Below, one piece after another: positions 7,476-21,609 of a DNA stretch of 43,969 nt. Each line of letters opens with the position of its first letter. Position 1 is the stretch's first letter. The notes under the pieces were generated by a model. The model was not told the origin of the DNA. It made no database searches and worked only from the letters and a program-made list of their open reading frames with translations. The DNA is from Bacteroidia bacterium (GTDB lineage Bacteria > Bacteroidota > Bacteroidia > UBA10329), in the NCBI GenBank assembly GCA_047611425.1, contig JBLFWJ010000003.1, positions 1-43,969 of the forward strand, in the 5' to 3' direction. Made by a program: the position numbers and the translations under genes.

Positions 7476-8521
7476 TTAAAAGAAAGTTCAGTGTATTAGT
7501 CGGCCTACTGGTCGTATTGGGGCTTGTTCAACTTTTCATTTTTAGCTCTGTTGAAAAAGGATCTGAGGACAAAGAGTACCAGCAGGCTTTCAACCAAGAC
7601 TATCGAATTTATACCCTCAATATCCCTGCGGATCTTGAGTTCTGTGGTGAGCAAATTCCTGTTCACGACATTGATATTCGGGAACGCTTAGACCGAGAGT
7701 TGTTGGTTAACACGTATTGGCAGAGTAACTCATTGCTGTACATAAAGCGCTCAAAAAAGTGGTTCCCAATCATTGAACCGATTCTTGCAGCCAACGGAAT
7801 TCCTGATGATTTCAAGTACTTGGCTTTAATAGAGAGCGGATTGACCAACGTGGTGAGCCCTTCTGGAGCAACCGGTTTTTGGCAATTGATGAAGGAGACG
7901 GGAAAAGAGTTTGGTTTAGAAGTAAACAAGGAAGTTGACGAACGGTACAACTTAACTCTTGCGACAAAGGCAGCGTGTAAATATTTAAAGCAAGCCTACA
8001 GCCGATACGGAAACTGGACCTTAGCAGCTGCTAGCTACAATATGGGCATGAACGGTGTAGACCGTCAGCTCAAGCGTCAGCAAGCAGATAGCTATTACGA
8101 TCTTTTGTTGAATTCCGAAACTTCACGTTATGTGTTTCGTGTAATTGCAGCAAAAGAGATTCTCACCAACACAACTAAATACGGATTCAGGTTCCGCGAA
8201 AAAGACCTCTACCCTACTCCACAGGTACAGTCCATCAAAGTGGATACCACAATTGACAACCTTGTGACCTTTGCCAAGGCGAATGATGTGAGCTATAAAA
8301 TTCTTAAAATCTTCAACCCGTGGTTGAGGCAAACCAATTTGCCTAATTCTTCAGGAAAGCAATATTCTATTGATTTTCCAACTGCAGGTTATTTCGATCA
8401 TCATAGTAATGGCCAAGAATTAAACCCAGCGTTTGTGGATAGCTTGGAATCGATTGCCGATTCCGTTATCGTTTACCCTACCGATACGCTTATCGCAGAA
8501 CCCAGTTCTGAGAATGAGTAA
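7472..8521 (+). CDS. Lytic murein transglycosylase (SLT/MltD-like), with a LysM-like C-terminal part
   Basis: YLALIESGL (catalytic Glu), SGATGFWQLM, VDER, AAASYNMG and ETSRYV; N-terminal TM segment. Confidence 0.88.
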   Translation: MIKRKFSVLVGLLVVLGLVQLFIFSSVEKGSEDKEYQQAFNQDYRIYTLNIPADLEFCGEQIPVHDIDIRERLDRELLVNTYWQSNSLLYIKRSKKWFPIIEPILAANGIPDDFKYLALIESGLTNVVSPSGATGFWQLMKETGKEFGLEVNKEVDERYNLTLATKAACKYLKQAYSRYGNWTLAAASYNMGMNGVDRQLKRQQADSYYDLLLNSETSRYVFRVIAAKEILTNTTKYGFRFREKDLYPTPQVQSIKVDTTIDNLVTFAKANDVSYKILKIFNPWLRQTNLPNSSGKQYSIDFPTAGYFDHHSNGQELNPAFVDSLESIADSVIVYPTDTLIAEPSSENE

Positions 8522-11375
8522 AAAGAAGTCGGGATTCGTTGCTCAGCCCTACTTGGAAGTGAATGGCGCTCGCGTTCACAACCTTAAGAATATTGACGTA
8601 AAAATTCCTCGATATAAACTAGTGGTAATCACTGGATTGAGCGGAAGCGGAAAATCCTCTTTAGCATTCGACACGATTTACGCTGAAGGACAAAGACGTT
8701 ATATAGAAACGTTTTCGGCCTATGCCCGTCAATTTATGGGCAATCTAGAACGGCCAGATGTAGACAACATTACAGGCCTAAGTCCAGTAATTAGCATAGA
8801 GCAAAAGTCTACCAATCGTAGCCCGAGATCTACGGTAGGAACAATTACTGAGATCTACGATTTATTCCGTTTGATGTACGCTCGGGCATCCATTGCCTAC
8901 AGCTACAACACTGATGAGCGTATGATCAAGCATACGGATGATGACATGCTTCAAATTCTGAAAGATGAATTTGAAGGCAAACGCATTATTCTGATGGCAC
9001 CGGTGATAAAAGGCCGAAAGGGACATTATCGCGAGCTTTTCGATCAATTCAGAAGACAGGGTTTTCAACGGGTTCGAGTTGATGGAGAAATTCTAGAATT
9101 GGACTCAGAGATTAAACTGGACAGGTACAAGGTTCATGATATTGAACTGGTTACAGATCGAGTTAAGGTTGATGAATCCAATCATAAAAGACTTCGCGAT
9201 TCTTTGAACTTGGCAATGAAGCATGGAAAGGGATCCCTCCTAATCCAGGACCATGAAACCGGTGAAACACGATTTTTGAGCCGAGCGTTGATGTGTCCAA
9301 CCTCAGGCATCGCCTATGATGAACCTCAACCTAATTTGTTTTCTTTCAATTCACCCTATGGTGCATGTCCAACCTGTAACGGGTTAGGAAACGTGTCGGA
9401 GATTGACAGAGAGAAGATCATTCCGAAAACCACGCTTTCTATTGCCCGTGGTGGCATTGCTCCTCTGGGAGAGCAAAAGAATACTTGGATTTTTCACCAA
9501 CTCGAGGCAATTGGTGATAAGTATGATTTCAAATTAAACACACCCATCAAGGATATTTCGGAAGAAGCTTTGAATGTGATCCTTCAGGGATCAAACGAAG
9601 TTTTCAAGGTGAAGCAGAGTGAAGGATCCACATCAAGCAATGTATCTCTGTCCTTTGAAGGAATTATGAGCTTTATCTCTCGCCAAGCGACAATGTCAGA
9701 CTCCGCTCGATTGGAAAAATGGGCTAAAGGATTTACCTCTAGGAAAGAGTGCGACAACTGCAATGGGGATCGGCTTAAAAAGGAATCACTCTACTTTAAA
9801 GTAGCAGATAAGAACATAGCCGAAGTCGCTAGAATGGATCTTCAAGCTTTGGGAGATTGGCTAGCCACGGTTGAAGAGAAACTGGATGAACGGCAATTGC
9901 TAATTGGTCATGAGATTTTAAAGGAAATTCAAACACGGCTGCAATTCTTACTAGATGTTGGGCTTGAATATTTGGCACTAGACCGACCAAGCCGATCACT
10001 TTCTGGTGGAGAAGCTCAAAGAATAAGATTGGCTACACAAATTGGTTCCGAATTAGTTGGTGTGCTCTACATCCTAGATGAACCAAGCATTGGATTGCAT
10101 CAACGAGATAATCAACGCTTAATTAAAGCATTGCAAAAACTACGTGACACGGGTAATTCCGTTATCGTGGTTGAGCATGACAAGGACATGATGATGGCTG
10201 CAGATCAGGTCATTGATCTTGGCCCAGGCGCTGGAATTCATGGTGGTGAGTTGGTTGGGCAAGATGTTGCCTCTGCCCTGCCCCATGAACGGTCTCTAAC
10301 CGCTGGTTACTTGAGTGGCGGAATGAGTATTCCATTTAGAAAGAAGCCTCGGAAAGGAACTGGAAAGTTCCTAACCCTCAAAGGTGCTACTGGCAACAAT
10401 CTCAAAAACGTTGACCTCAAACTTCCTTTAGGAAAGATGATTTGCGTTACTGGCGTTTCTGGAAGTGGAAAATCAAGCTTGATTAACAGCACCTTGCATC
10501 CAGTTCTATCCAACGAATTACATCGTGCGGAAAGACAATATCTTCCGTACAAAAAACTGGTTGGTCTTGAAAATCTAGACAAGGTAATTGGTATAGACCA
10601 AACTCCAATCGGACGAACACCTAGATCAAACCCAGCAACATATACAGGTGTGTTTTCGGATATACGCGCCCTATATGCTTCGTTACCTGAAGCACAGATT
10701 CGAGGGTACAAAGCAGGCCGGTTTTCTTTCAACGTAAAGGGTGGTCGATGTGAAGAATGCAGAGGTGCTGGTGTTCGAACCATCGAAATGAATTTCTTGC
10801 CAGATGTACATGTTCATTGTACAACCTGCAATGGCAGAAGATTCAATCGCGAAACACTTGAAGTTCGATTCAAAGGAAAATCGATTTCTGACTTGCTTGA
10901 TATGAACATTGAGCAAGCCATGGAATTCTTTGAAGGCATTCCAAGCATCCTTCGAAAGATTAGCACCATAAATGATGTTGGTCTTGGATACATCAGTCTA
11001 GGCCAGAGTTCCACAACCCTGTCTGGTGGTGAAGCACAGCGAATAAAGTTGGCTTCTGAACTGTCCAAGAAAGACACTGGTCAGACCCTTTACATTCTGG
11101 ATGAACCAACAACGGGCCTTCATTTCGAAGATGTTCGTGTTTTACTTGGTGTACTAGACAAACTTGCAGATCGCGGCAATACTGTTTTGATAATTGAACA
11201 TAATATGGATGTAATCCGCTCAGCAGACTACATCATCGATATCGGAAAAGAAGGTGGTGAGCGTGGTGGTGAAATAATTGCCCAGGGATCACCGTTAAAG
11301 GTTGCGACTGAGACAAATTCCTACACCGGTGTTTTTCTAAAAGAAGAATTCGATTCGTTAGGAATCAAAATCTAA
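8514..11375 (+). CDS. uvrA: Excinuclease ABC subunit A
   Basis: GARVHNLKN, two Walker A motifs ([18 protein letters not shown]), two LSGGEAQR signatures and CxxC zinc fingers. Start at ATG 8514. Confidence 0.97.
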
Positions 11376-11450
11376 TTGTTACGATTCTTCACTAACCTTG
11401 AACGCTAATTTGAGTACAATTGGCAATTCATTGATTTCAATATTTCCATC

Positions 11451-12161
11451 ATGACAGAAAAAGACAAGAGAATTCAACGTGCACTGAAAGAGAAAAGTTG
11501 GAACGAGATAAAGACGAACGATTCTTGGCAGATCTTTAAAATTATGAGTGAGTTTGTGGATGGTTTCGAGTCAATGGCTCGAATTGGTCCATGCGTTTCC
11601 ATTTTCGGATCAGCGCGTACAAAAGAGGATAACCCACATTATATCTTGGCTGAAGAAATCGCCTTCCACCTTGCCGAATTGGGCTTTGGAATTATTACCG
11701 GAGGAGGACCAGGAATTATGGAAGCAGGTAACAAAGGTGCTAATCGCGCAGGCGGTAAATCTGTTGGGTTGAACATAGACCTGCCTCACGAGCAATCATC
11801 CAATCCGTATATAGATCACGATAAAGACATCAATTTCGATTATTTCTTTGTTCGAAAATTGATGTTCATGAAATACGCTCAAGGATTTGTAGTACTCCCC
11901 GGGGGATTTGGAACCTTGGACGAATTGTTTGAAGCAATCACATTAATTCAAACGGGAAAAGTCGCACAGTTTCCTATTATTCTCGTTAGTTCGGAATACT
12001 GGAATGGTATGCTTGATTGGATAAAATCTACCATGCTTAGCCAAGAAGGAAACATCAGCCCTGAAGACTTAGACTTGATTACGGTTGTTGACACATGTGA
12101 AGAAGTATCCCAGGCTATCGACAATTTCTATTCTAAACACAAACTCAAGCCTAATTACTAG
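11451..12161 (+). CDS. LOG family (TIGR00730) nucleotide phosphoribohydrolase
   Basis: Motifs FGSAR, ITGGGPGIMEA, YFFVRK and PGGFGTLDELFE. Confidence 0.92.
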   Translation: MTEKDKRIQRALKEKSWNEIKTNDSWQIFKIMSEFVDGFESMARIGPCVSIFGSARTKEDNPHYILAEEIAFHLAELGFGIITGGGPGIMEAGNKGANRAGGKSVGLNIDLPHEQSSNPYIDHDKDINFDYFFVRKLMFMKYAQGFVVLPGGFGTLDELFEAITLIQTGKVAQFPIILVSSEYWNGMLDWIKSTMLSQEGNISPEDLDLITVVDTCEEVSQAIDNFYSKHKLKPNY

Positions 12162-12265: not shown

Positions 12266-13663
12266 ATGAGCATCAGAACTTTACTCTCTGCCCTATTCAT
12301 CTTTCTTTTTGTTTCAGGGTTTGCACAAGAATCTCCAGAAGGAGATGATGCGGTAACAACCGAGACAGAGACGGCCGAAAAGGAGCCTAAGGTCAAAAAG
12401 CCAAAGCCACCTTACTACGACCATAAATTGCCTTCAATTCAAATTAATGGTGGTAATCTTTCATTGTTGTCAGATGATATGGATAGCAAGAATCAACCTT
12501 TTGTAGGGGCCAATTTAAGATGGGCTTATGGTGCAAAAGTGGAATATCGTCCGTTGAACTATTTAGGCGTTTCACTTGGAGTTATGATGGGGTCAGTTGC
12601 AAATAAGCAGAGAGCCGGTAATCAATTCAACAATTACACGGTTGAAACTGACATTCTAAGTGCAGAATTCAACGTTATTATACCGCTTGATAATAATGTA
12701 ATCATAAACCGAGCAAGCAAATTTGCTCCATACCTTTTTGGAGGCGTAGCATATCAGTGGTTTAGCACAAAGGCCGATAATTATAGTTCAGACGGCAGAT
12801 ACTACCATTATTGGAGAGACGGTAATGTTTATGATCGAATCGAGGACATTGACCATTCCAATCGCAGAGAGCAACTTTCACATGACCAGAACTATGAAAC
12901 TCCTTTAAAAGAGGGATACGGTGATTCTGTTAGATATGATCGAGCTCAATTGGCTTTTCCTTTTGGACTTGGATTAAGATTCAAATTTTCCAATTCATTC
13001 TATGCCGACCTATCTGCTACATATTACTGGAGCATGTCGGATTACTTGGACAACTATAAATCTGATGAAGGAACCCAAACAGACCACATGCTGTACACCT
13101 CTGTGGGGTTTGGATACAACATTGGAGCCCGAAAGAAAAAACCGGATAGCACTCAGTTTGACCTAATTGACTTTAAGGCCCTGGATCAAGATGACGATGA
13201 TGGAGATGGCGTTAGAAACATGGAAGACCTGTGTGCAGGTACACCTCAGGGAACTGGAGTTGACGAAAAGGGTTGCCCAACTGACGAAGACAATGATGGG
13301 GTGCCTGATTACATAGACGATGAATCAGGTTCTGCAGAAGGTGCATTGGTTGATGCTAGAGGAGTGACCATTGGAGACGTGATACCAGGAACTGATACGT
13401 TAGCTGTTAAGCACAGTGTGGTTTATTTGGCCTACCCTAGCCAAAAATTCAAGCCAATGGGATCGATTTACAATACTGAATCGATAGAAGATGCAGGTAA
13501 TAGGTCAGCTGATTTAGGTGACTTTAAAGATGCCGATTACGATGGTGATGGTTACATCTCAAGTGAGGAAATCACGTTAGCAATTGATGCCTTCTTTGAA
13601 GGTGAGTTGGATTACTCAGCAGATAAACTGCATGATCTTATGGATTTCTTCTTCGATCAATAA
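12266..13663 (+). CDS. Outer-membrane beta-barrel protein (OmpA/PorG-like barrel) + TSP3-like Ca-binding repeats + C-terminal EF-hand/dockerin-like module (paralog 1)
   Basis: Signal peptide GFA-Q; alternating beta strands (PYLFGGVAY, FPFGLGLRF, SDYLD, YTSVGFGYNIG); DDDGDGV..DLC..TP..GCP.DEDNDGVPD; ends DADYDGDGYISSEE...LMDFFFDQ. Confidence 0.75.
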   Translation: MSIRTLLSALFIFLFVSGFAQESPEGDDAVTTETETAEKEPKVKKPKPPYYDHKLPSIQINGGNLSLLSDDMDSKNQPFVGANLRWAYGAKVEYRPLNYLGVSLGVMMGSVANKQRAGNQFNNYTVETDILSAEFNVIIPLDNNVIINRASKFAPYLFGGVAYQWFSTKADNYSSDGRYYHYWRDGNVYDRIEDIDHSNRREQLSHDQNYETPLKEGYGDSVRYDRAQLAFPFGLGLRFKFSNSFYADLSATYYWSMSDYLDNYKSDEGTQTDHMLYTSVGFGYNIGARKKKPDSTQFDLIDFKALDQDDDDGDGVRNMEDLCAGTPQGTGVDEKGCPTDEDNDGVPDYIDDESGSAEGALVDARGVTIGDVIPGTDTLAVKHSVVYLAYPSQKFKPMGSIYNTESIEDAGNRSADLGDFKDADYDGDGYISSEEITLAIDAFFEGELDYSADKLHDLMDFFFDQ

Positions 13664-13672
13664 TTAACTAAG

Positions 13673-14994
13673 ATGACAACCAGAAACATCTTTACTTGGT
13701 TGCTCTTGGTTTGCGCAAGACACTCCGTCAACTCATCTTCCTTCCAAAAAGGACTCACTCCGACTTGCACGCAAGACCTTTGAAAAGGAGAACGACATTA
13801 AAATGCCCCAGTTTGGTATTAGTGCGGGTGTTCTAAACTATTTTTGGTGAACCTGACCACAACGGACGGACCAATCCATTGGTTGTTAGTTATGGGGTCA
13901 ACGCAAGTATCATTCAGAATTTGAGTCCTTCCTTCGGATTGAAATCCGAGTACATGCATGCACGTCTTATATTTAATAAAGAGGACGGTCCGTCAAATAA
14001 TTTCTGAACGGACATTAACGCGGGATACGTCCAAATCTTCTACAACTTCGCAAGAATTCTCCCGCAAAATAGAATCCTGAACCCTTTTATTGCAATTGGT
14101 GTTGGCACCTTCAATTCCAAAGGAGATCTCAAGAGTGCAGAGGGATATCGATACTTCGAACATTCTGATGGTTCACTTTGGAGTTTACCAGAAGAATCTG
14201 AATTTTCGGATGATGCGGTTGATTTGGTTAGAGACCATGTATATGAATCGGATCTTCATGAAGAAAATATAGACGGATTAGGAAAATACAGCCAATTCGC
14301 CCTATCAGTTCCTGCAACATTCGGATTAAATTTTCAGATTTCTAATCGGGCAAGTCTTCAAGTTTCGTCCGCATTTCACTGGACTACAACAGATCTCATA
14401 GATAACATTAGTTCAAAAGGGGATGATAAAAACGACATGATTCTTTACAATTCCATCTCATTCTTTTACGATTTCCTCTCTCCAAAAAAAACTAGGAAGA
14501 GTAATTACAATCAGGTCGAATTCTTCAGCCTAGAAGGTGATGGAGATGGGGTTAAAGATTTCGAAGATTTATGTCCATACACACCAAAAGGTTCGCCAGT
14601 ATCAACAATTGGTTGTGCCCTTGATGGAGATGAAGTACCTGATAATCTAGATAAGGAGTTGACTTCCAACCCAGATTTACCAGTAAACAAAGATAGTGTT
14701 TCTATAAAAGATAGTCTGAAAGTAACTATAGCCTCGGATTCAGTGGCCACTAAACACGAAGTTCGGTACTTGGTTTATCCGGGTATGGCAGAAATGTACG
14801 CGGTGAAAAGAACCGGAAACTCACATCAAACGGCCATCAATCTTACCGGTTATCAGCAATTTGATTTGGATAAAGATGGATTCCTTAGCGTTGCAGAAGT
14901 ACATTCTGCAATCGATAAATTCTTCGAAGGAGAAATGCCAGAATTAACTGCTACAGACCTTGCTGGACTGATTGACCACTTCTTCGATCAATAA
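13673..14994 (+). pseudogene. Degraded paralog 2 of the barrel/TSP3/EF-hand family
   Basis: ATG at 13673; frameshift near 13710 (FAQDTP...KMPQFGISAGVLNYF lies in another frame); second frameshift in the T5 run at 13841-13845; in-frame TGA at 14005-14007; then open to 14994 with family motifs (SKGDLK, SDG, RDHVYESDL, TDLIDN, DLDKDG...LIDHFFDQ). Confidence 0.85.
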
Positions 14995-15042
14995 AAAAAA
15001 GATAATACCTTTAGCCGCTTAACAATCAAGACCTTAGTACCT

Positions 15043-16161
15043 ATGAACTTTAGGAATATAACCAGTTTCTTCGTGATAGTAATGGTGCTTGCAGTAACAA
15101 CTGCACAAGCCCAAGTTAGTGTTACTACTAACCTTCCTGCGAGTGCAGCTCCAGGCAGTCAATTTCTAGTCGAGCTAACAGTAACTAAACCTGGAGTAAC
15201 TGGGTTTGCCAAATTGGAGCAAAGCCTCCCTACTGGTTTTGAAGCTTCGGCCGGACAAACAGCTAACGCAACATTCTCCTTCAAAGACAGAAAGGTTAAG
15301 TTTTTATGGATGGCACTTCCTAATGGAGACACATTTACCGTCTCTTATAAAGTGCAAGTAGATGCTTCATTGAGTGGTAACCAAATACTTGAAGGAAAAT
15401 TCGCTTACATAAAGGACAACGCTACGGAGAAGTATATTCTTCCAAAAGACATTATAGCTGTTGGTGCAGATCCGGCTGCCGCAGCTGAAGCTCAGGCTTT
15501 AGCTTCTATCGAAGCAGATGCCAAAGCAAAAGAAGATGCTGATGCAGCCGCTCGTGAAGCAGCTGCAGAATCTGAAGCCACAGCAGAAGAGGTGGTTGAA
15601 GAAACACCTGAAGTCGTTGAGGAAGTAGCCGAAGAAGTTGCTGAAGTCGTTGAAGTCGTTGAAGTGGTTGAAGAAGTTGACAACAGCGCTGCCGAGGCAG
15701 AAGTTGCTGCTGCTGAAGAAGCTGACAGACAAGCAAAAGAGGCTGAACTGGAAAGACTAAGAACTGAAAAAGCTTCAAGAGAAGCTGAAGCAGCCGCAAT
15801 TAAGGCAGCAGAACCCGTTGCAGTAGAAGTAGCTCCTACCAAGGAAGCCGCTCCAAATTACAATGATGCGATGCTTCAAAGCAAAGCAGGATTAGTTTTC
15901 CGAGTTCAAGTATCAGCAGGGCCAAATCAAGTAGATCCAGCAGTTGTAGCGAGCAAGCTAGGTTTAACCGAAACTGTAATGTTGGAAGAGAATGAGGGCA
16001 TGTTCAAGTATGTCGTTGGTGAGTTCGGAAGCTACAGACCTGCTAAAACTTTCTCCAACTCACTTAGAGATAATAATGGTGTTGACGGTCCTTTTGTTAC
16101 TGCCTATAAAGATGGATCTAGAATTCACGTTAAGGAAGCACTTGACATGGCAGGTCAATAA
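15043..16161 (+). CDS. Secreted protein: N-terminal beta-sandwich (cohesin/Ig-like), Ala/Glu/Val-rich linker, C-terminal SPOR-like domain
   Basis: Signal AQA-Q; LPASAAPGSQFLVELTV..LPTGF..TVSYKV..LEGKFAY; low-complexity linker; FRVQVSA...FKYVVGEFGSY..A...LR..GV.GPFVTAYKDG.RI. Confidence 0.7.
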   Translation: MNFRNITSFFVIVMVLAVTTAQAQVSVTTNLPASAAPGSQFLVELTVTKPGVTGFAKLEQSLPTGFEASAGQTANATFSFKDRKVKFLWMALPNGDTFTVSYKVQVDASLSGNQILEGKFAYIKDNATEKYILPKDIIAVGADPAAAAEAQALASIEADAKAKEDADAAAREAAAESEATAEEVVEETPEVVEEVAEEVAEVVEVVEVVEEVDNSAAEAEVAAAEEADRQAKEAELERLRTEKASREAEAAAIKAAEPVAVEVAPTKEAAPNYNDAMLQSKAGLVFRVQVSAGPNQVDPAVVASKLGLTETVMLEENEGMFKYVVGEFGSYRPAKTFSNSLRDNNGVDGPFVTAYKDGSRIHVKEALDMAGQ

Positions 16162-16189
16162 ACGCGCAAAAAAAACACAGACATTGACA

Positions 16190-16219
16190 TGACCTGGGCT
16201 TTGTCCCGGGTTATTTTTT
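16190..16219 (+). terminator. Probable Rho-independent terminator
   Basis: GACCTGGG / CCCGGGTT stem (with G-U pairs) followed by ATTTTTT, about 30 nt after the stop at 16161. Confidence 0.6.
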
Positions 16220-16246
16220 ACCTTGAACTTTCGTAAATCGGAATTG

Positions 16247-17863
16247 ATGTTGCGCAGATCGTGGTTAATTCTTCCATTTTTAATTAGCTGTTGTATCAGT
16301 TATGGCCAAGTAGTAGAGTCTGAGAATGATTCTTCCTTTAAAACTATACAGCTACCCATGTTCGACCTAGGTTTTGGCTGGTCATTTCTTATGGGTGATA
16401 TAGGAAACACTTCTCCTGCGCCAAGTTCGGCATTACAATTCTCCTACGGATTGAGTATCCGCCAGGCAATAATGCCGTATCTCTCTGTTTCAATCGACTT
16501 TAGCACTGGGAAATTTTATGGGGAAAAAGCCTTGGGAGATACGGAAAATCTAAATTTTCAAACATCTGTAATCAGCCAAGGACTTCAGTTCACATACGAG
16601 GCTTCCCACTTATTTAATAGGAATAACAAAGGATTTGTTCAATACCAGCCTTATGTTGGCATCGGTGTAGGATTAATCTCATTCCGAGCAAAGGGTGACC
16701 TAAAAGATGGGAACTTGAATACCTACAATTATTGGAGCGATGGAACAATCAGAAGTTTGCCAGAAACACCAAATAATGTAGACCTCGCAGAAGTAATATC
16801 GCGAGATTTGGTATATGAGTCTGACTTACGTGACGCAAACTTGGACGGATTTGGACGCTACGATCAAATGGCCTTGAGAATACCAATCGAACTTGGTTTT
16901 AGATACCAATTCACCAAACGAATTGGAGCACACATCAAAGGCATTTACAATCTGAATTTTACCGATCTGTTGGACAACGTAACATCTGAAAGTCTGGGTG
17001 ATCGGCAAGCAAACGCTGATAATGATAACCACCTGTCGGCAATGATGGGCGTAAGTGTTTATTTGGGGGAATATCGAAAGCCAAAGAAAAAGAAACGAGA
17101 ACCTATGCCTGCCCTCTTAGCGGAGGAAGATTTAGATTCAAATAATCAAGAGGTTGATCCAATTCAAGACTCCATTTCCAACCTGGCTGTTGTTTCAGTA
17201 AACAACGATAATCAGGATTCAGATAGTAAAGAAGAAAGTTCTAATTACTCTAAAAACCTTGACTCCGAGGCCATTACTAGTTCGGAATATGGAGCTAAGA
17301 ATGTGGAAGACGTTGGTCAGGTTGATGAAGCTATGCTTGGGAATGAATCAGCTTCAACTAAAAACGAAATTGATAAATCCGCCTCCAATAAATCAACGGG
17401 TGAGTCAAACACCGATATTTTGAGTCAGATAGAAATTACCGAGAATCAATATAGCCTATCTGTCGATTCTAACTCCCAAAATGAAAGCAGCGAGTCTTCT
17501 AAGAATGCTACCATAGATCAATCTGAAGTCGGAGAACCGAGTAGTGCTATTTCGGATAGCTCTACCTCAAGCACGACCAACGACAACTCCATAGAAAACA
17601 CTATTGCTCAACCTAATAGTATTTCTAAAAAAGAGCAAAGAACGAATGAGTTAACAACGTTTGACCTGATTGAAAAAACGATGGGGATTGGGTCAACTGA
17701 GCCTAAAATTGCTGGTCGCTTTCATTGGGCTGATGTTAATACGGACAAATACATTTCTGCCGATGAGGTGTTACACTTCATAGACCTCTTATTTGACGGG
17801 GAATCTGAGTACACCCTACCAATGATTCACGAGTTGATTGAGTACTATTTTGACCAAGATTGA
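16247..17863 (+). CDS. Outer-membrane barrel paralog 3, with a long Ser/Asn/Glu-rich disordered linker and C-terminal EF-hand/dockerin-like module
   Basis: Signal SYG-Q; FLMGDIG, AKGDLKDG..YNYWSDG, RDLVYESDLR, TDLLDNV; linker of roughly 200 aa; ends ADVNTDKYISADE...LIEYYFDQD. Confidence 0.75.
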   Translation: MLRRSWLILPFLISCCISYGQVVESENDSSFKTIQLPMFDLGFGWSFLMGDIGNTSPAPSSALQFSYGLSIRQAIMPYLSVSIDFSTGKFYGEKALGDTENLNFQTSVISQGLQFTYEASHLFNRNNKGFVQYQPYVGIGVGLISFRAKGDLKDGNLNTYNYWSDGTIRSLPETPNNVDLAEVISRDLVYESDLRDANLDGFGRYDQMALRIPIELGFRYQFTKRIGAHIKGIYNLNFTDLLDNVTSESLGDRQANADNDNHLSAMMGVSVYLGEYRKPKKKKREPMPALLAEEDLDSNNQEVDPIQDSISNLAVVSVNNDNQDSDSKEESSNYSKNLDSEAITSSEYGAKNVEDVGQVDEAMLGNESASTKNEIDKSASNKSTGESNTDILSQIEITENQYSLSVDSNSQNESSESSKNATIDQSEVGEPSSAISDSSTSSTTNDNSIENTIAQPNSISKKEQRTNELTTFDLIEKTMGIGSTEPKIAGRFHWADVNTDKYISADEVLHFIDLLFDGESEYTLPMIHELIEYYFDQD

Positions 17864-17897
17864 ATTTGACTATTTTTGATCGGTTGTGAACAAGCCT

Positions 17898-19781
17898 ATG
17901 AAAAGACCCCTACTCCTCACCTTGCTCCTCATTGTACCAATGATTTCCTTAGTTCTGGAAGTCAATGGACAAACTCCCGAAGAGCTGTATTACAAAGATG
18001 ACAGTGGCCGTGATGCTCTATTCAAACCAAGAGTTGGACTTGGCACGGGCATATTCACTTTCTTTGGTGATGTTAATGACGACAATCGACTACACCCGTT
18101 TACCAGTAGTTTGGGATACGAATTTGTTGCTTCAGCCAATTTATCAAGGTATTTCAATCTTAATTTGAAAGCGATTTACGGGAATATAAAAATCAACGAA
18201 CGAGGAAAAGAAATTGAAGGATTTGATGAAAAGCGTAACCTCAATTTCAAATCAGAAATGTTTTTGGGAGGAGTTGATGTTAGTTACAACTTCAACCATC
18301 TATATAATAAACCTGGTATAATACAGCCTTTTGTGTCAGCTGGTGTGGCCTTTTTAAGCTTTGATACAAAGAGCGATCTTAGGGATTCACGAGGTATATC
18401 CTATCATTATCATAGTGATGGACTGATTAGTGACATTAGTGAGGAAGAAGCACGCGAACTGCAGATTGATGCGCCAGAGGTTCTTCGGGATTACACGTAT
18501 GAAACGGACCTAAGAAAAGAAGACCTTGATTCGTTAGGAAAGTACAATACATTTTCATTTGCAATTCCTGTTTCTTTAGGAATCGATTTTCGATTGAGTA
18601 GAAGGGTCAGTGCAAAATTCAGCAGCACATTCTACTACACATTTACTGATAACATAGACAACGTATCTTCGGAAAGTTCAGGAATTCGTCAAGGCAATAA
18701 GGCCAATGACATGTTTCTATTCACTTCGCTTAGCGTAAGTTACGCACTGGGATCAAACAAAAAGTCTGTTAAGGCCAACAAAACGAAGTATTTTCAAGGA
18801 ACAAACTTTACCGCGTTATATTTTGACGATTCTGATGGAGATGGCGTAAATGATTTTGACGACCTCTGTGCCAAAACCCCAGATGGCGCTAAAGTTGATG
18901 CGTTTGGTTGCGCTTTGGATTCAGATATTGATGATATCCAGAATTATCGAGATGACGAAGAATCTACACCGCAAGGAAATATCGTAACAACTCGTGGAGT
19001 CACACTTACAGATAGTATGATGCTGGCCTCATACATAGATTCTGCGGCACTAAAAAGATCCTTAATCCCTCAAATTTATCCATCTGGTGTATTGAGCATT
19101 AACCCGCCTCTTTCACCAGAAGATTCGACCATGTTAGCTGATACCAGAATTCGCTTACAATCGGAGATTGAGTCGAATAGCGACCTTGATCTGGTGTTCA
19201 AAGCGATTGAAGATGAGGTAAATAAGATGGACTTCTCAGAAGCTACAGACCCTGCAGAAGTCTATGCTAAAGCTGAGCAGGTATATTCCAAAATGGTTAA
19301 GAATAAAACCATAGAGCCAACGGCCCCAATGGCCATTACAACTGAGCCAGCCAAACCATCTATAATTCCTCCAGAATATGTGGAGGCTGACTACAATGGT
19401 GATGGTATACTTACCTCTGATGAAGTATTGAGAGTGATTGATGCCATTCTGGAAGGAGGTTCTTCATTTACAGTTGCACAAGTTCTTGGTATTATTGATT
19501 ACGCCACGGAGTATATGGACACCGCGAAGGTGGTCGATTTCGGAGGTACTTATGGTGTCTACATTGACAATTCACTGCATATTTTGAATGACTATGGCGA
19601 TGGACGTTCTAATTCTCAGCGATATTTAGCAAAGAAATACTCTGCAGTAGATGCAAATGGTGATGGCATCCTTACTCCTAACGAGGTGAACGATATGATT
19701 GCCAGATTCCAAAATGGTGATACCAACTATACAGAAACACAGATTTACGATTTGATCAACCTTTTCTTTGAAGAAGAATAA
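17898..19781 (+). CDS. Outer-membrane barrel paralog 4, with TSP3-like repeats and two EF-hand/dockerin-like modules
   Basis: Signal VNG-Q; FFGDVN, YHYHSDG, RDYTYETDLR, TDNIDNV; DSDGDGVND..DLC; ADYNGDGILTSDE and DANGDGILTPNE...LINLFFEEE. Confidence 0.75.
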   Translation: MKRPLLLTLLLIVPMISLVLEVNGQTPEELYYKDDSGRDALFKPRVGLGTGIFTFFGDVNDDNRLHPFTSSLGYEFVASANLSRYFNLNLKAIYGNIKINERGKEIEGFDEKRNLNFKSEMFLGGVDVSYNFNHLYNKPGIIQPFVSAGVAFLSFDTKSDLRDSRGISYHYHSDGLISDISEEEARELQIDAPEVLRDYTYETDLRKEDLDSLGKYNTFSFAIPVSLGIDFRLSRRVSAKFSSTFYYTFTDNIDNVSSESSGIRQGNKANDMFLFTSLSVSYALGSNKKSVKANKTKYFQGTNFTALYFDDSDGDGVNDFDDLCAKTPDGAKVDAFGCALDSDIDDIQNYRDDEESTPQGNIVTTRGVTLTDSMMLASYIDSAALKRSLIPQIYPSGVLSINPPLSPEDSTMLADTRIRLQSEIESNSDLDLVFKAIEDEVNKMDFSEATDPAEVYAKAEQVYSKMVKNKTIEPTAPMAITTEPAKPSIIPPEYVEADYNGDGILTSDEVLRVIDAILEGGSSFTVAQVLGIIDYATEYMDTAKVVDFGGTYGVYIDNSLHILNDYGDGRSNSQRYLAKKYSAVDANGDGILTPNEVNDMIARFQNGDTNYTETQIYDLINLFFEEE

Positions 19782-19791
19782 AAACAAAAAA

Positions 19792-21609
19792 ATGAAAGCA
19801 CCATTACTTTTCTCCCTTTTCATTATTGGGACACTAACTGGCGGTTCCGCCCTGGCCCAGGATAAGCCAGATGTGAAAAAAGCAACGGATTCACCAAAAG
19901 TTGAATCTGAAGCGAAAACGGAACCAATAAAAACCAGTTCAAACGTGAAAAGCTATGCTCCACATGAGTTTAAGCTAAACGTTCATGCCGGTGGAGGGTT
20001 TAATCTTTTTATGGGTGATATTGCAGACAATGCATCTACTAACGTGCACCGAATTGGTAATCGGTTTGCATATCACTTTGGAATTGGAGCTACGTTAACT
20101 CCATGGCTCGATTTAAACGCGAACGTAATTATTGGCCGTTTAAACGGTAATGAGCGAAGCCATGAAGAAGGCGAATTGTGGAAAAACAGAAACTTCGAAG
20201 CCAAGACTTTTGCAGCAGGACTGGAACTCTCCTACAATTTTAAAAACATTGGATTTTTTCGAGATCCACGGGTAATGGTGCCATTTGTGGGTGCCGGTGC
20301 ATATTTTAGTACGTATGATGTATACATAGATAAGAAAGTTGATTCTACTGGTGATAAATACCACTATTGGTCTGATGGCCGAATTATGTCTGAAGAGGAA
20401 GATAATCTCATTTCAGATAACGCTCAACCAATAGTTCGAGATTTCCTTTACGAATCTAAGGAGGCTGACTCTCCTGTAAAAGCGTTGGCCATACCTGTTT
20501 TCGGAGGTTTTGATTTCAACATAGATCGCAACTGGGCCTTCCGTTTAAAGGCGGCATATTTCTTCACATTAACTGACGCAATAGATGGATATGATGATCC
20601 TCAGCATTCAGATAATTTGGATGGCTATTTCTACACTTCGGCCAGCGTATTTTTCAAATTCAATCCATTTAAAAAACGAGCGGCTAAAGGCGAAGTACCT
20701 TTAGAATATGTTGGTGATTTTGGTCCATTAATTAATGAGGATACAGATAAGGATGGAGTTGTTGATTTTCTTGATAAATGCAACGGTACACCAACAGGTG
20801 TCACAGTAAACTCCGATGGTTGTGCACTTGATAGCGATAATGATGGAATTCCAGACTACAGAGATAATCAGAAAAACACCGTGGCAGGATACATTGTAGA
20901 CGAGCATGGAGTAGCAATCAGTTACAAAAATATCTATGAAGAATTCCAAAAGGACACTTTCTCTATTCTAAGAAGAAACGAGTGGTTATACTCTCAACCC
21001 GAAAAGGATCCTCAGTACACGGTACATGTTGGAACGTTCACTAATTACGATATTCCAACTCAATTGAAAATGAAATTGAGTTCCATAAGCGGGTTAGTTG
21101 AAAGAAATATTAACGATAGCGTGTCTGTTTTTACCCTTGGATCATTCAACAATTTTGAGGCCGCAGAAGCAAAACAAAACCAGTTGATTAAATCTGGAAT
21201 CGATCAAGCTTTTGGGGTCAATGAAAATGCCATTAAGAGGGTTGCTGACGATATGAAGGAACTTAGAGTGTCAGATCCGATCTTTTCTCAGGGTGCTAGA
21301 ACAGAAAAAGAACCAGATATCCTTAATTATGGTGTTGAATTAAAGGAATACAGATTGAGGTTAGACATAAACAGGTTGTCATCAGTAATTGCCAAGTATG
21401 GTGTAGAAATGAGATCGACCCCTGGTGGCATTAAAATCTATCGAATTGGTTCTTTCAATCATTTTGACGAGGCTGAAAAACTTAGAAAAAGTGTCGCAAA
21501 ATTGGGTGTTAAAAACCCTCAAATCAGTCCACGCTTGAATGACCGACCAATTGATGTTGATAAGGCTAAAGAGCTCGAATCAACTATCAATCCTCAGGAA
21601 GAAAAGTAA
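19792..21609 (+). CDS. Outer-membrane barrel paralog 5, with TSP3-like repeats and two SPOR-like domains
   Basis: Signal ALA-Q; FMGDIA, YHYWSDG, RDFLYES, TDAIDG; DTDKDGV.D..DKC..TP..GCALDSDNDGIPD; YTVHVGTF...LGSFNNFEAAE and YRIGSFNHFDEAEKLR..LGV. Confidence 0.75.
   Translation: MKAPLLFSLFIIGTLTGGSALAQDKPDVKKATDSPKVESEAKTEPIKTSSNVKSYAPHEFKLNVHAGGGFNLFMGDIADNASTNVHRIGNRFAYHFGIGATLTPWLDLNANVIIGRLNGNERSHEEGELWKNRNFEAKTFAAGLELSYNFKNIGFFRDPRVMVPFVGAGAYFSTYDVYIDKKVDSTGDKYHYWSDGRIMSEEEDNLISDNAQPIVRDFLYESKEADSPVKALAIPVFGGFDFNIDRNWAFRLKAAYFFTLTDAIDGYDDPQHSDNLDGYFYTSASVFFKFNPFKKRAAKGEVPLEYVGDFGPLINEDTDKDGVVDFLDKCNGTPTGVTVNSDGCALDSDNDGIPDYRDNQKNTVAGYIVDEHGVAISYKNIYEEFQKDTFSILRRNEWLYSQPEKDPQYTVHVGTFTNYDIPTQLKMKLSSISGLVERNINDSVSVFTLGSFNNFEAAEAKQNQLIKSGIDQAFGVNENAIKRVADDMKELRVSDPIFSQGARTEKEPDILNYGVELKEYRLRLDINRLSSVIAKYGVEMRSTPGGIKIYRIGSFNHFDEAEKLRKSVAKLGVKNPQISPRLNDRPIDVDKAKELESTINPQEEK

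Follow-up and report, generated by a model that had tools for sequence, protein, structure and literature searches.

In a 43,969-nucleotide stretch of DNA from a Bacteroidia bacterium of the GTDB lineage UBA10329 (contig JBLFWJ010000003.1 of assembly GCA_047611425.1, positions 1 to 43,969, hereafter the window), we describe a C-terminal protein module of about 45 residues that contains a single putative calcium-binding loop of the EF-hand type. Its sequence relationships mark it as a separate branch of the EF-hand group, restricted to one lineage and not described previously. Six genes lie on the same strand at window positions 12266-21609, and four of them (P1, P2, P4 and P5) have the module, in each case at the end of a tail that follows an outer-membrane beta-barrel. 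The family itself is well supported, its function is inferred, and it belongs to uncultured bacteria of ice and seawater metagenomes, as the sequencing runs holding this DNA are labelled. The function that we favor, with about even confidence, is that of a periplasmic, calcium-stabilized docking tip that replaces a peptidoglycan-binding domain.The preliminary description of this DNA had listed five copies of the module, and we recovered all five, in four adjacent genes, within about 3 bases of the positions it gave (Table 1). P1, P2 and P4 have one terminal module each, and P5 has one internal and one terminal module. In every copy the 12-residue loop has Asp at position 1, Asp or Asn at 3, Asp at 5, a hydrophobic residue at 8 and Glu at 12. 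Gly at position 6 is present in four of the five copies and is Lys in copy 3, so that the canonical loop claimed for each copy is canonical in four and near-canonical in one. The helical unit that follows does lack a calcium loop, as had been proposed, and keeps only its helix and the helix N-cap. The two units had also been described as an internal duplication of the form IDxFF..IDxFF. Letter for letter this motif occurs twice in copy 2 only; at the level of the family the likeness stands. When 595 pairs of 8-column windows were compared in 42 aligned modules, the register that sets helix 2 against helix 3 at an offset of 19 scored highest. The eight leading pairs all have this offset, and the likeness reaches the N-cap Ser/Thr and the hydrophobic residue preceding it.

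We searched the 3.22-Mb assembly of the same organism with a profile of the five copies, which scored 16 candidates and gave 6 matches at E<=10. Five of these are the window copies, with E values of 3.9e-31 to 4.8e-27, and the sixth is on another contig (C148, E 2e-6). Since the genome has only 6 matches and five of them fall in one array, the module cluster is not a chance scatter of EF loops. The sixth copy has lost the calcium loop and kept both helices (..LIDEFFDG..MIDKFFDN), which points to the helices as the conserved core. Both of the small proteins encoded at that locus have what we read as lipoprotein-type signals, and no Pfam or NCBIfam family was found for the one that ends in the module.

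We compared a profile of six sequences and 48 positions (A2) with 1.84 billion representative proteins and obtained 6229 matches at E<=0.001. Among the best 150 matches, 114 are multi-EF-hand proteins whose best stretch is the loop region and never extends past profile position 32, and 36 are full-length, starting at position 1-5 and ending at position 44-48. Nearly all of the full-length matches (34 of 36) end no more than one residue from the protein C-terminus, and the two that do not (P0049 and P0092) have a further module at the protein end. Among these full-length matches are the P2 fragment of the window itself (P0082), a relative of P1 (P0009) and a likely orthologue of P4 (P0059). A profile search of this kind had been proposed beforehand, with a return of generic EF-hands only as the outcome that would speak against a family; what it recovered instead were full-length relatives that keep the second of the paired helices (helix 3) and the FF(D/E)Q end at the C-terminus, which bears out the suggestion of a new domain family.

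Within the 42 modules, Ile24 and Gly30 are invariant, and D8, E19, L42, I43 and F47 are kept in at least 95% of sequences; the last two positions are D/E in 88% and Q in 83%. The loop columns are D8 (98%), N/D10 (97%), D/N12 (100%), G13 (90%) and E19 (98%). The module region of P1 matches 26 proteins at E<=0.01, one of them the window's own, with lengths of 264-508 amino acids (aa). Conservation among P1 relatives was 0.91 in the module versus 0.75 in the barrel and 0.74 in the linker, in a set that was picked by module likeness and is thereby biased upward.

Neither Pfam nor NCBIfam has a family that covers the module. NCBIfam listed nothing for it, and Pfam gave generic EF-hand models only. 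The EF-hand pair model has 67 positions, and the alignments break off at about its position 41-50. All window copies score below the Pfam cut-offs (the best is EF-hand_5, 25.8 bits versus 25.9), and several relatives pass, among them P0040 (EF-hand_7, 53.4 versus 30) and P0037 (EF-hand_1, 30.7 versus 25.4). A sequence search of the PDB aligned the loop region only, at profile positions 2-27 in nearly every row, with one calmodulin row reaching position 40. An Atlas search returned the protein's own cluster (score 0.93, 141 members), and the further rows, at 0.80-0.81, are leads only. In the literature open to our search, which has subscription journals outside its coverage, we found no mention of DUF6089, the barrel family of P5, and titles and abstracts showed nothing relevant on EF-hand, SPOR or TSP3 outer-membrane tails in Bacteroidota.

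Taken by themselves, the canonical loop ligands, the calcium-binding TSP3 repeats present in the same tails and the fact that generic EF-hand families are the only ones matched would fit a plain calcium site without a partner, in which the acidic tail and its TSP3 repeats stiffen the tail or buffer divalent cations of the envelope. We consider this quite unlikely, however, because conservation is higher in the helices and the FF(D/E)Q end than in the loop (0.97 versus 0.81, again in a biased set), because the sixth genomic copy lost its loop and kept its helices, and because a mere ion site needs no strict C-terminal position.

We modeled the 54-residue end of P1 with AlphaFold2 from an alignment of 14 rows (model m4dd677f28997; predicted local distance difference test score, pLDDT, 90.1; predicted template modeling score, pTM, 0.70). 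The single module is predicted to form a self-contained three-helix fold, with helices at residues 7-12, 22-34 and 41-53. A second model, of the tandem modules of P5 with 20 orthologues (m830f2bd53f10), has a pLDDT of 79.3 and a pTM of 0.51. Foldseek found no match in the PDB at E<=0.001 for either model, and fold searches of 48,161 chains each, made independently of Foldseek, gave no row with Z>=5 for either.

Below these thresholds, dockerins account for 9 of the 50 rows listed for the single-module model (Z 3.0-3.9, root-mean-square deviation (rmsd) 2.5-3.8 Å, 44-49 residues aligned by VIA-align) and for 5 of the 50 listed for the tandem model (Z 3.1-3.8), each aligned to one module. The best dockerin row is 2vn5_B, with Z values of 3.9 and 3.8, an rmsd of 2.7 Å and 46 residues aligned. 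Canonical EF-hand lobes reached at best Z 2.2 and rmsd 4.9 Å against the single-module model, among the 34 chains aligned by Foldseek, and Z 3.1-3.5 with rmsd 4.7-5.6 Å in the fold search with the tandem model. Both predicted structures come out somewhat closer to dockerins than to EF-hand lobes, but the Z values are weak. None of them reaches 5, and they lie in a range that the fold-search tool calls common for helical models, and the dockerin likeness is therefore best taken as a reproducible but weak likeness of helix packing and not as homology.

The preliminary description had seen in the two-fold symmetry of the module a reminder of dockerin dual binding, and the weak fold likeness is the part of that idea that survives. 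As a true dockerin homologue the module would bind a cohesin-like partner, possibly at the cell surface and in a dual binding mode; the dockerin rows of the fold searches, the likeness of the two helices at offset 19 and Atlas clusters with Dockerin_1 (score 0.80-0.81, a lead only) could be cited in its favor. Membership nevertheless fails on several points. A dockerin is built of a segment of about 22 residues that occurs twice and has a calcium loop and a helix in both copies, and the module has one loop only. Dockerin_1 (PF00404) gave no match to the five copies at E<=10; in the genome as a whole it matched none of them at E<=1, and its only match, elsewhere (contig C190, 14.8 bits), is below the cut-off. 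Cohesin (PF00963) was not found at E<=0.1 in the organism's own genome, which is 91% complete, and every Z value lies in the range common for helical models. Among 26 relatives, two have partial Dockerin_1 matches to one repeat (positions 34-56 of 57), at 23.0 and 20.3 bits versus a cut-off of 22.9. We regard dockerin homology as very improbable. Archaeal relatives, which would have favored it, were not seen: the few named relatives are Flavobacteriales or Bacteroidota metagenome-assembled genomes, with one labeled Granulosicoccus, and most matches are without a name.

EF-hands normally occur in pairs, and an EF-hand that stands alone usually pairs by way of its loop. In the same manner, one tail might join another, or one module of P5 its neighbor, and so cross-link the barrels into dimers or larger assemblies. 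In keeping with such self-pairing, the tandem arrangement is conserved throughout an alignment of 20 P5-type sequences (P5 and 19 orthologues, loci L050-L068), most genomes of the order have several modules, and the best Foldseek rows, none of them significant, include domain-swapped or oligomeric EF-hands (1k9u, 3li6, 1ht9 and 1cta, E 3-6). We still think it unlikely, insofar as the single module is predicted to fold confidently alone, the tandem model has no confident joint fold and no fold-search row spans both modules, and the one genome with the module outside the order (G363, below) has just one copy of it. In P5 the stretch that separates the two modules is itself conserved, and in the tandem model its three short predicted strands lie at residues 68-71, 76-80 and 83-87, with a local pLDDT of 66-68. 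A similar piece stands ahead of the last module in relatives from a second locus.

The module is carried by barrel proteins related to PorG. With the exception of P3, which has no match, the six proteins match NF052316 (PorG) at 27.8-81.4 bits; all scores are below the equivalog cut-off of 130, so that the carriers are PorG-like and not PorG. Only P5 passes Pfam DUF6089 (PF19573), with 40.2 bits versus a cut-off of 23.2; P6 remains below it at 19.5 bits, and the others match OMP_b-brl or nothing. P1 has Pfam matches to OMP_b-brl, TSP_3 and EF-hand and an NCBIfam PorG-like match, all below cut-off, and the PorG-like match of P4 (E 3.8e-10) is likewise below. Besides DUF6089, P6 matches TSP_3 and SPOR in Pfam and the PorG-like family in NCBIfam, each below cut-off. 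TSP3 repeats occur in P1, P2, P5 and P6. The linkers between barrel and module are unrelated among the carriers, as had been noted, that of P4 being a Ser/Asn/Glu-rich stretch of about 200 residues. Eight of the 26 relatives scanned have barrel and/or TSP3 matches, and no other domain type scored above its cut-off among the 26. One relative, P0156, has the TSP3-linker-module tail after a signal peptide and a Lys/Glu-rich stretch, with no barrel.

A module that is strictly C-terminal and has conserved last residues could also be a C-terminal sorting or processing signal that is recognized and perhaps removed. The carriers already have N-terminal signal peptides and barrels, however, one copy in P5 is internal, and a folded calcium-binding domain is unlike known sorting tags; in addition, the NCBIfam scan of the six window proteins and the two C148 proteins listed no type IX C-terminal domain family at E<=0.1. 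We hold this explanation to be highly unlikely.

Table 1. Positions of the genes, module copies and related features. Positions are those of the window unless a locus is named; aa, amino acids; Ig, immunoglobulin.
Feature	Position	Strand	Description
P1	12266..13663	+	465 aa: signal peptide, outer-membrane beta-barrel, TSP3 repeat, linker, C-terminal module
P2	13674..14994	+	broken carrier gene; C-terminal 328 codons open; module intact
P3	15043..16161	+	372 aa: signal peptide, Ig-like domain (15106-15462), Ala/Glu-rich stretch, end read as SPOR-like; no barrel, no module
P4	16223..17863	+	546 aa: barrel, long Ser/Asn/Glu-rich linker without TSP3, C-terminal module
P5	17886..19781	+	631 aa: DUF6089 barrel, TSP3, linker, two tandem modules
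P6	19768..21609	+	613 aa: same barrel and TSP3; SPOR region at tail end, not module
Module copy 1	13529..13660	+	P1 end; loop DYDGDGYISSEE; helix 2 ..AIDAFFEG; helix 3 ..LMDFFFDQ; stop codon next
Module copy 2	14860..14991	+	P2 end; ..AIDKFFEG .. LIDHFFDQ; stop codon next
Module copy 3	17729..17860	+	P4 end; loop DVNTDKYISADE, Lys at position 6; ..FIDLLFDG .. LIEYYFDQD; stop codon next
Module copy 4	19386..19517	+	P5, internal; decayed end ..IIDYATEYM
Module copy 5	19647..19778	+	P5 end; ..MIARFQNG .. LINLFFEEE; stop codon next
Inter-module piece of P5	19518..19646	+	conserved, motif DFGGT.AVY.DG.LNIL; three short strands predicted
P3-type proteins	window 15043-16161; L048 7858-9294; L070 8053-9585		signal peptide, 1-2 Ig-like domains, low-complexity stretch, end read as SPOR-like
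C148 pair	L006 499-1029 and 1033-1623		adjacent paralogous small proteins, 176 and 196 aa; only second ends in module

The P2 gene is interrupted. Comparison by tblastn with an intact 468-aa orthologue (genome G420) showed that the frame shifts near 13783 and once more near 13840, and that a TGA stands in frame at 14005-14007. Contigs of three other sequencing runs (X4, X5 and X6, which may share one campaign) have identical letters at these breaks, with no insertion or deletion, and P2 therefore looks like a real pseudogene of the population rather than an assembly slip. As listed, P6 starts at a TTG inside P5, so that the two genes share 14 bases (19768-19781); its true start may be an ATG nine codons inward (MKAPLL..). 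The end of the module in P1 is encoded by the final 35 bases of the gene (13629-13663). These also match contigs of other runs, one of 4724 bases in X1, X4 and X6 and one of 841 bases in X5, with 3 differences in each case and unlike flanks on both sides. These contigs probably hold the P1 gene of a relative, with the module end well kept even at the DNA level.

Of 24 genomes from the order to which the window belongs, representing one family and three genera, every one has the module; the number of matches per genome is 1-9, and they mostly form one syntenic array. Among 400 other genomes sampled evenly from the phylum it was found in one at E<=1e-7, in a search that scored at most 15 candidates per genome and could have missed weak copies. 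This genome, G363, belongs to another family and has a single module in a reduced array, in the order barrel plus module, Ig-Ig-SPOR, and barrel plus SPOR. In the window (8433-12161) as in G363 (L070 1245-5307), the array is immediately preceded by uvrA and a gene of the LOG family, and from this shared position in two families the array locus looks orthologous and old. The G363 counterpart of P6, of 765 aa, ends in repeated stretches that we read as SPOR-like. Relatives also have a second locus, which encodes tandem-module proteins of 750-880 aa (G406:C10:30985-33715, G405:C3, G417:C30 and G408:C51); no counterpart was found in the window's own genome (G000), which is 91% complete in 245 contigs.

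The one gene between the carriers that has neither barrel nor module, P3, has a tail that we read as SPOR-like from its likeness to SPOR-ended proteins of G363 and of a further genome, G107; Pfam gave no SPOR match for P3. Its Ig-like domain occurs directly after P2 in 21 of the 24 genomes of the order, where it is 64-75% identical, and the three genomes with no match are 95%, 90% and 63% complete. Elsewhere in the phylum sample the domain was found in 4 of 400 genomes, namely G363 and all three genomes of family f10. Strict co-occurrence of the P3 Ig domain with the module is ruled out by f10, which has the Ig-SPOR gene and in which no module was found. P3 thus does not depend on the module and is a candidate partner only.

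From these observations we propose the following mechanism. The module would consist of a short entering helix, one calcium loop, an exiting helix, a six-residue turn around the invariant Gly and a third helix ending in FF(D/E)Q. It may derive from an EF-hand pair truncated at the start of the second loop, in agreement with the Pfam coordinates, or from two loop-plus-helix units of which the second loop has decayed. It stands at the tip of a long tail on PorG-like or DUF6089 outer-membrane barrels, in the place held by SPOR in paralogues and by a peptidoglycan-binding domain in other Bacteroidota OmpA-type proteins. P6 and its G363 counterpart have SPOR where the other carriers have the module, the SPOR match of P6 being below the Pfam cut-off. 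The tails are probably periplasmic, because the C-terminal extension of PorG is periplasmic and because of these SPOR paralogues. PorG forms a barrel of 8 strands, and its C-terminal extension binds PorK in the periplasm (PMC12365241), a precedent for docking mediated by a tail. Calcium, abundant in the marine periplasm, would keep the small fold rigid, as a structural ion and not as a signal, and the module would act at the tail tip in protein-protein docking, joining the barrel either to a partner in the periplasm or to a second module. The best candidate partner is the Ig-like domain of the neighboring SPOR protein P3, which would make a two-part link between outer membrane and cell wall. 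In its fullest form, the module would be the plug of a periplasmic, dockerin-like and calcium-dependent system in which the tails of P1, P2, P4 and P5 dock on the Ig domain of P3, itself bound to peptidoglycan through SPOR, in place of an OmpA-type anchor; this we regard as a doubtful extension.

Several points weigh against the docking tip. The tails are placed in the periplasm by analogy, from the topology of PorG and OmpA, and from the SPOR paralogues; the two structure models come from shallow alignments, of 14 and 20 rows; and the tandem model, with its pTM of 0.51 and no row spanning both modules, has no defined two-module fold. All three genomes of family f10 have the Ig-SPOR gene with no module found, and in the f10 genome examined (G107) the gene has no module gene beside it.

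With this module the EF-hand group would gain a defined domain family that has one loop and three helices, is obligately C-terminal and takes the position of a cell-wall-binding domain on outer-membrane barrels. Should the module prove to be a docking tip, it would point to a way of joining outer membrane and cell wall in Bacteroidota for which the papers searched have no description, and it would be a small calcium-dependent protein-protein module comparable to half a dockerin.

Among known systems, the module shares with the EF-hand pair (PF13499 EF-hand_7; PF00036, PF13202) a canonical 12-residue loop between helices; these are the only Pfam families matched, and the matches in the PDB sequence search are calmodulin-type proteins. 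It differs in that an EF-hand pair has four helices and the module has three, with one loop, no fourth helix and a short entering helix, and in that it is strictly C-terminal and ends in FF(D/E)Q; EF-hand lobes also fit its model poorly. Type I dockerin (PF00404) is likewise a small module of calcium loop plus helix at the C-terminus of its carrier, with two similar antiparallel helices, and is the best small-domain fold match (Z 3.0-3.9). Unlike a dockerin, the module has a single loop and no match to the sequence family, its genome yielded no cohesin, and its carriers are outer-membrane barrels, with a likely periplasmic tail, and not secreted enzymes.

The carriers resemble the OmpA-type anchors of Bacteroidota (OMP_b-brl, TSP_3 and a peptidoglycan-binding domain) in having a barrel, TSP3 repeats and a terminal domain, and NF053612, the PA1041-family anchor, is weakly matched by the TSP3 parts of the window proteins. 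The usual Bacteroidota OmpA-type architecture ends in OmpA_C; in the window proteins the EF-hand-derived module, or SPOR in the case of P6, takes the place of that peptidoglycan-binding domain. PorG of type IX secretion (NF052316) has a related barrel, with 81.4 bits on P5 and 28-41 bits on the others, and a C-terminal periplasmic extension that holds its partner PorK (PMC12365241). The tails of the window carriers are 150-350 residues longer than that of PorG, and they end in a folded module whereas PorG ends in a Cys-bearing peptide.

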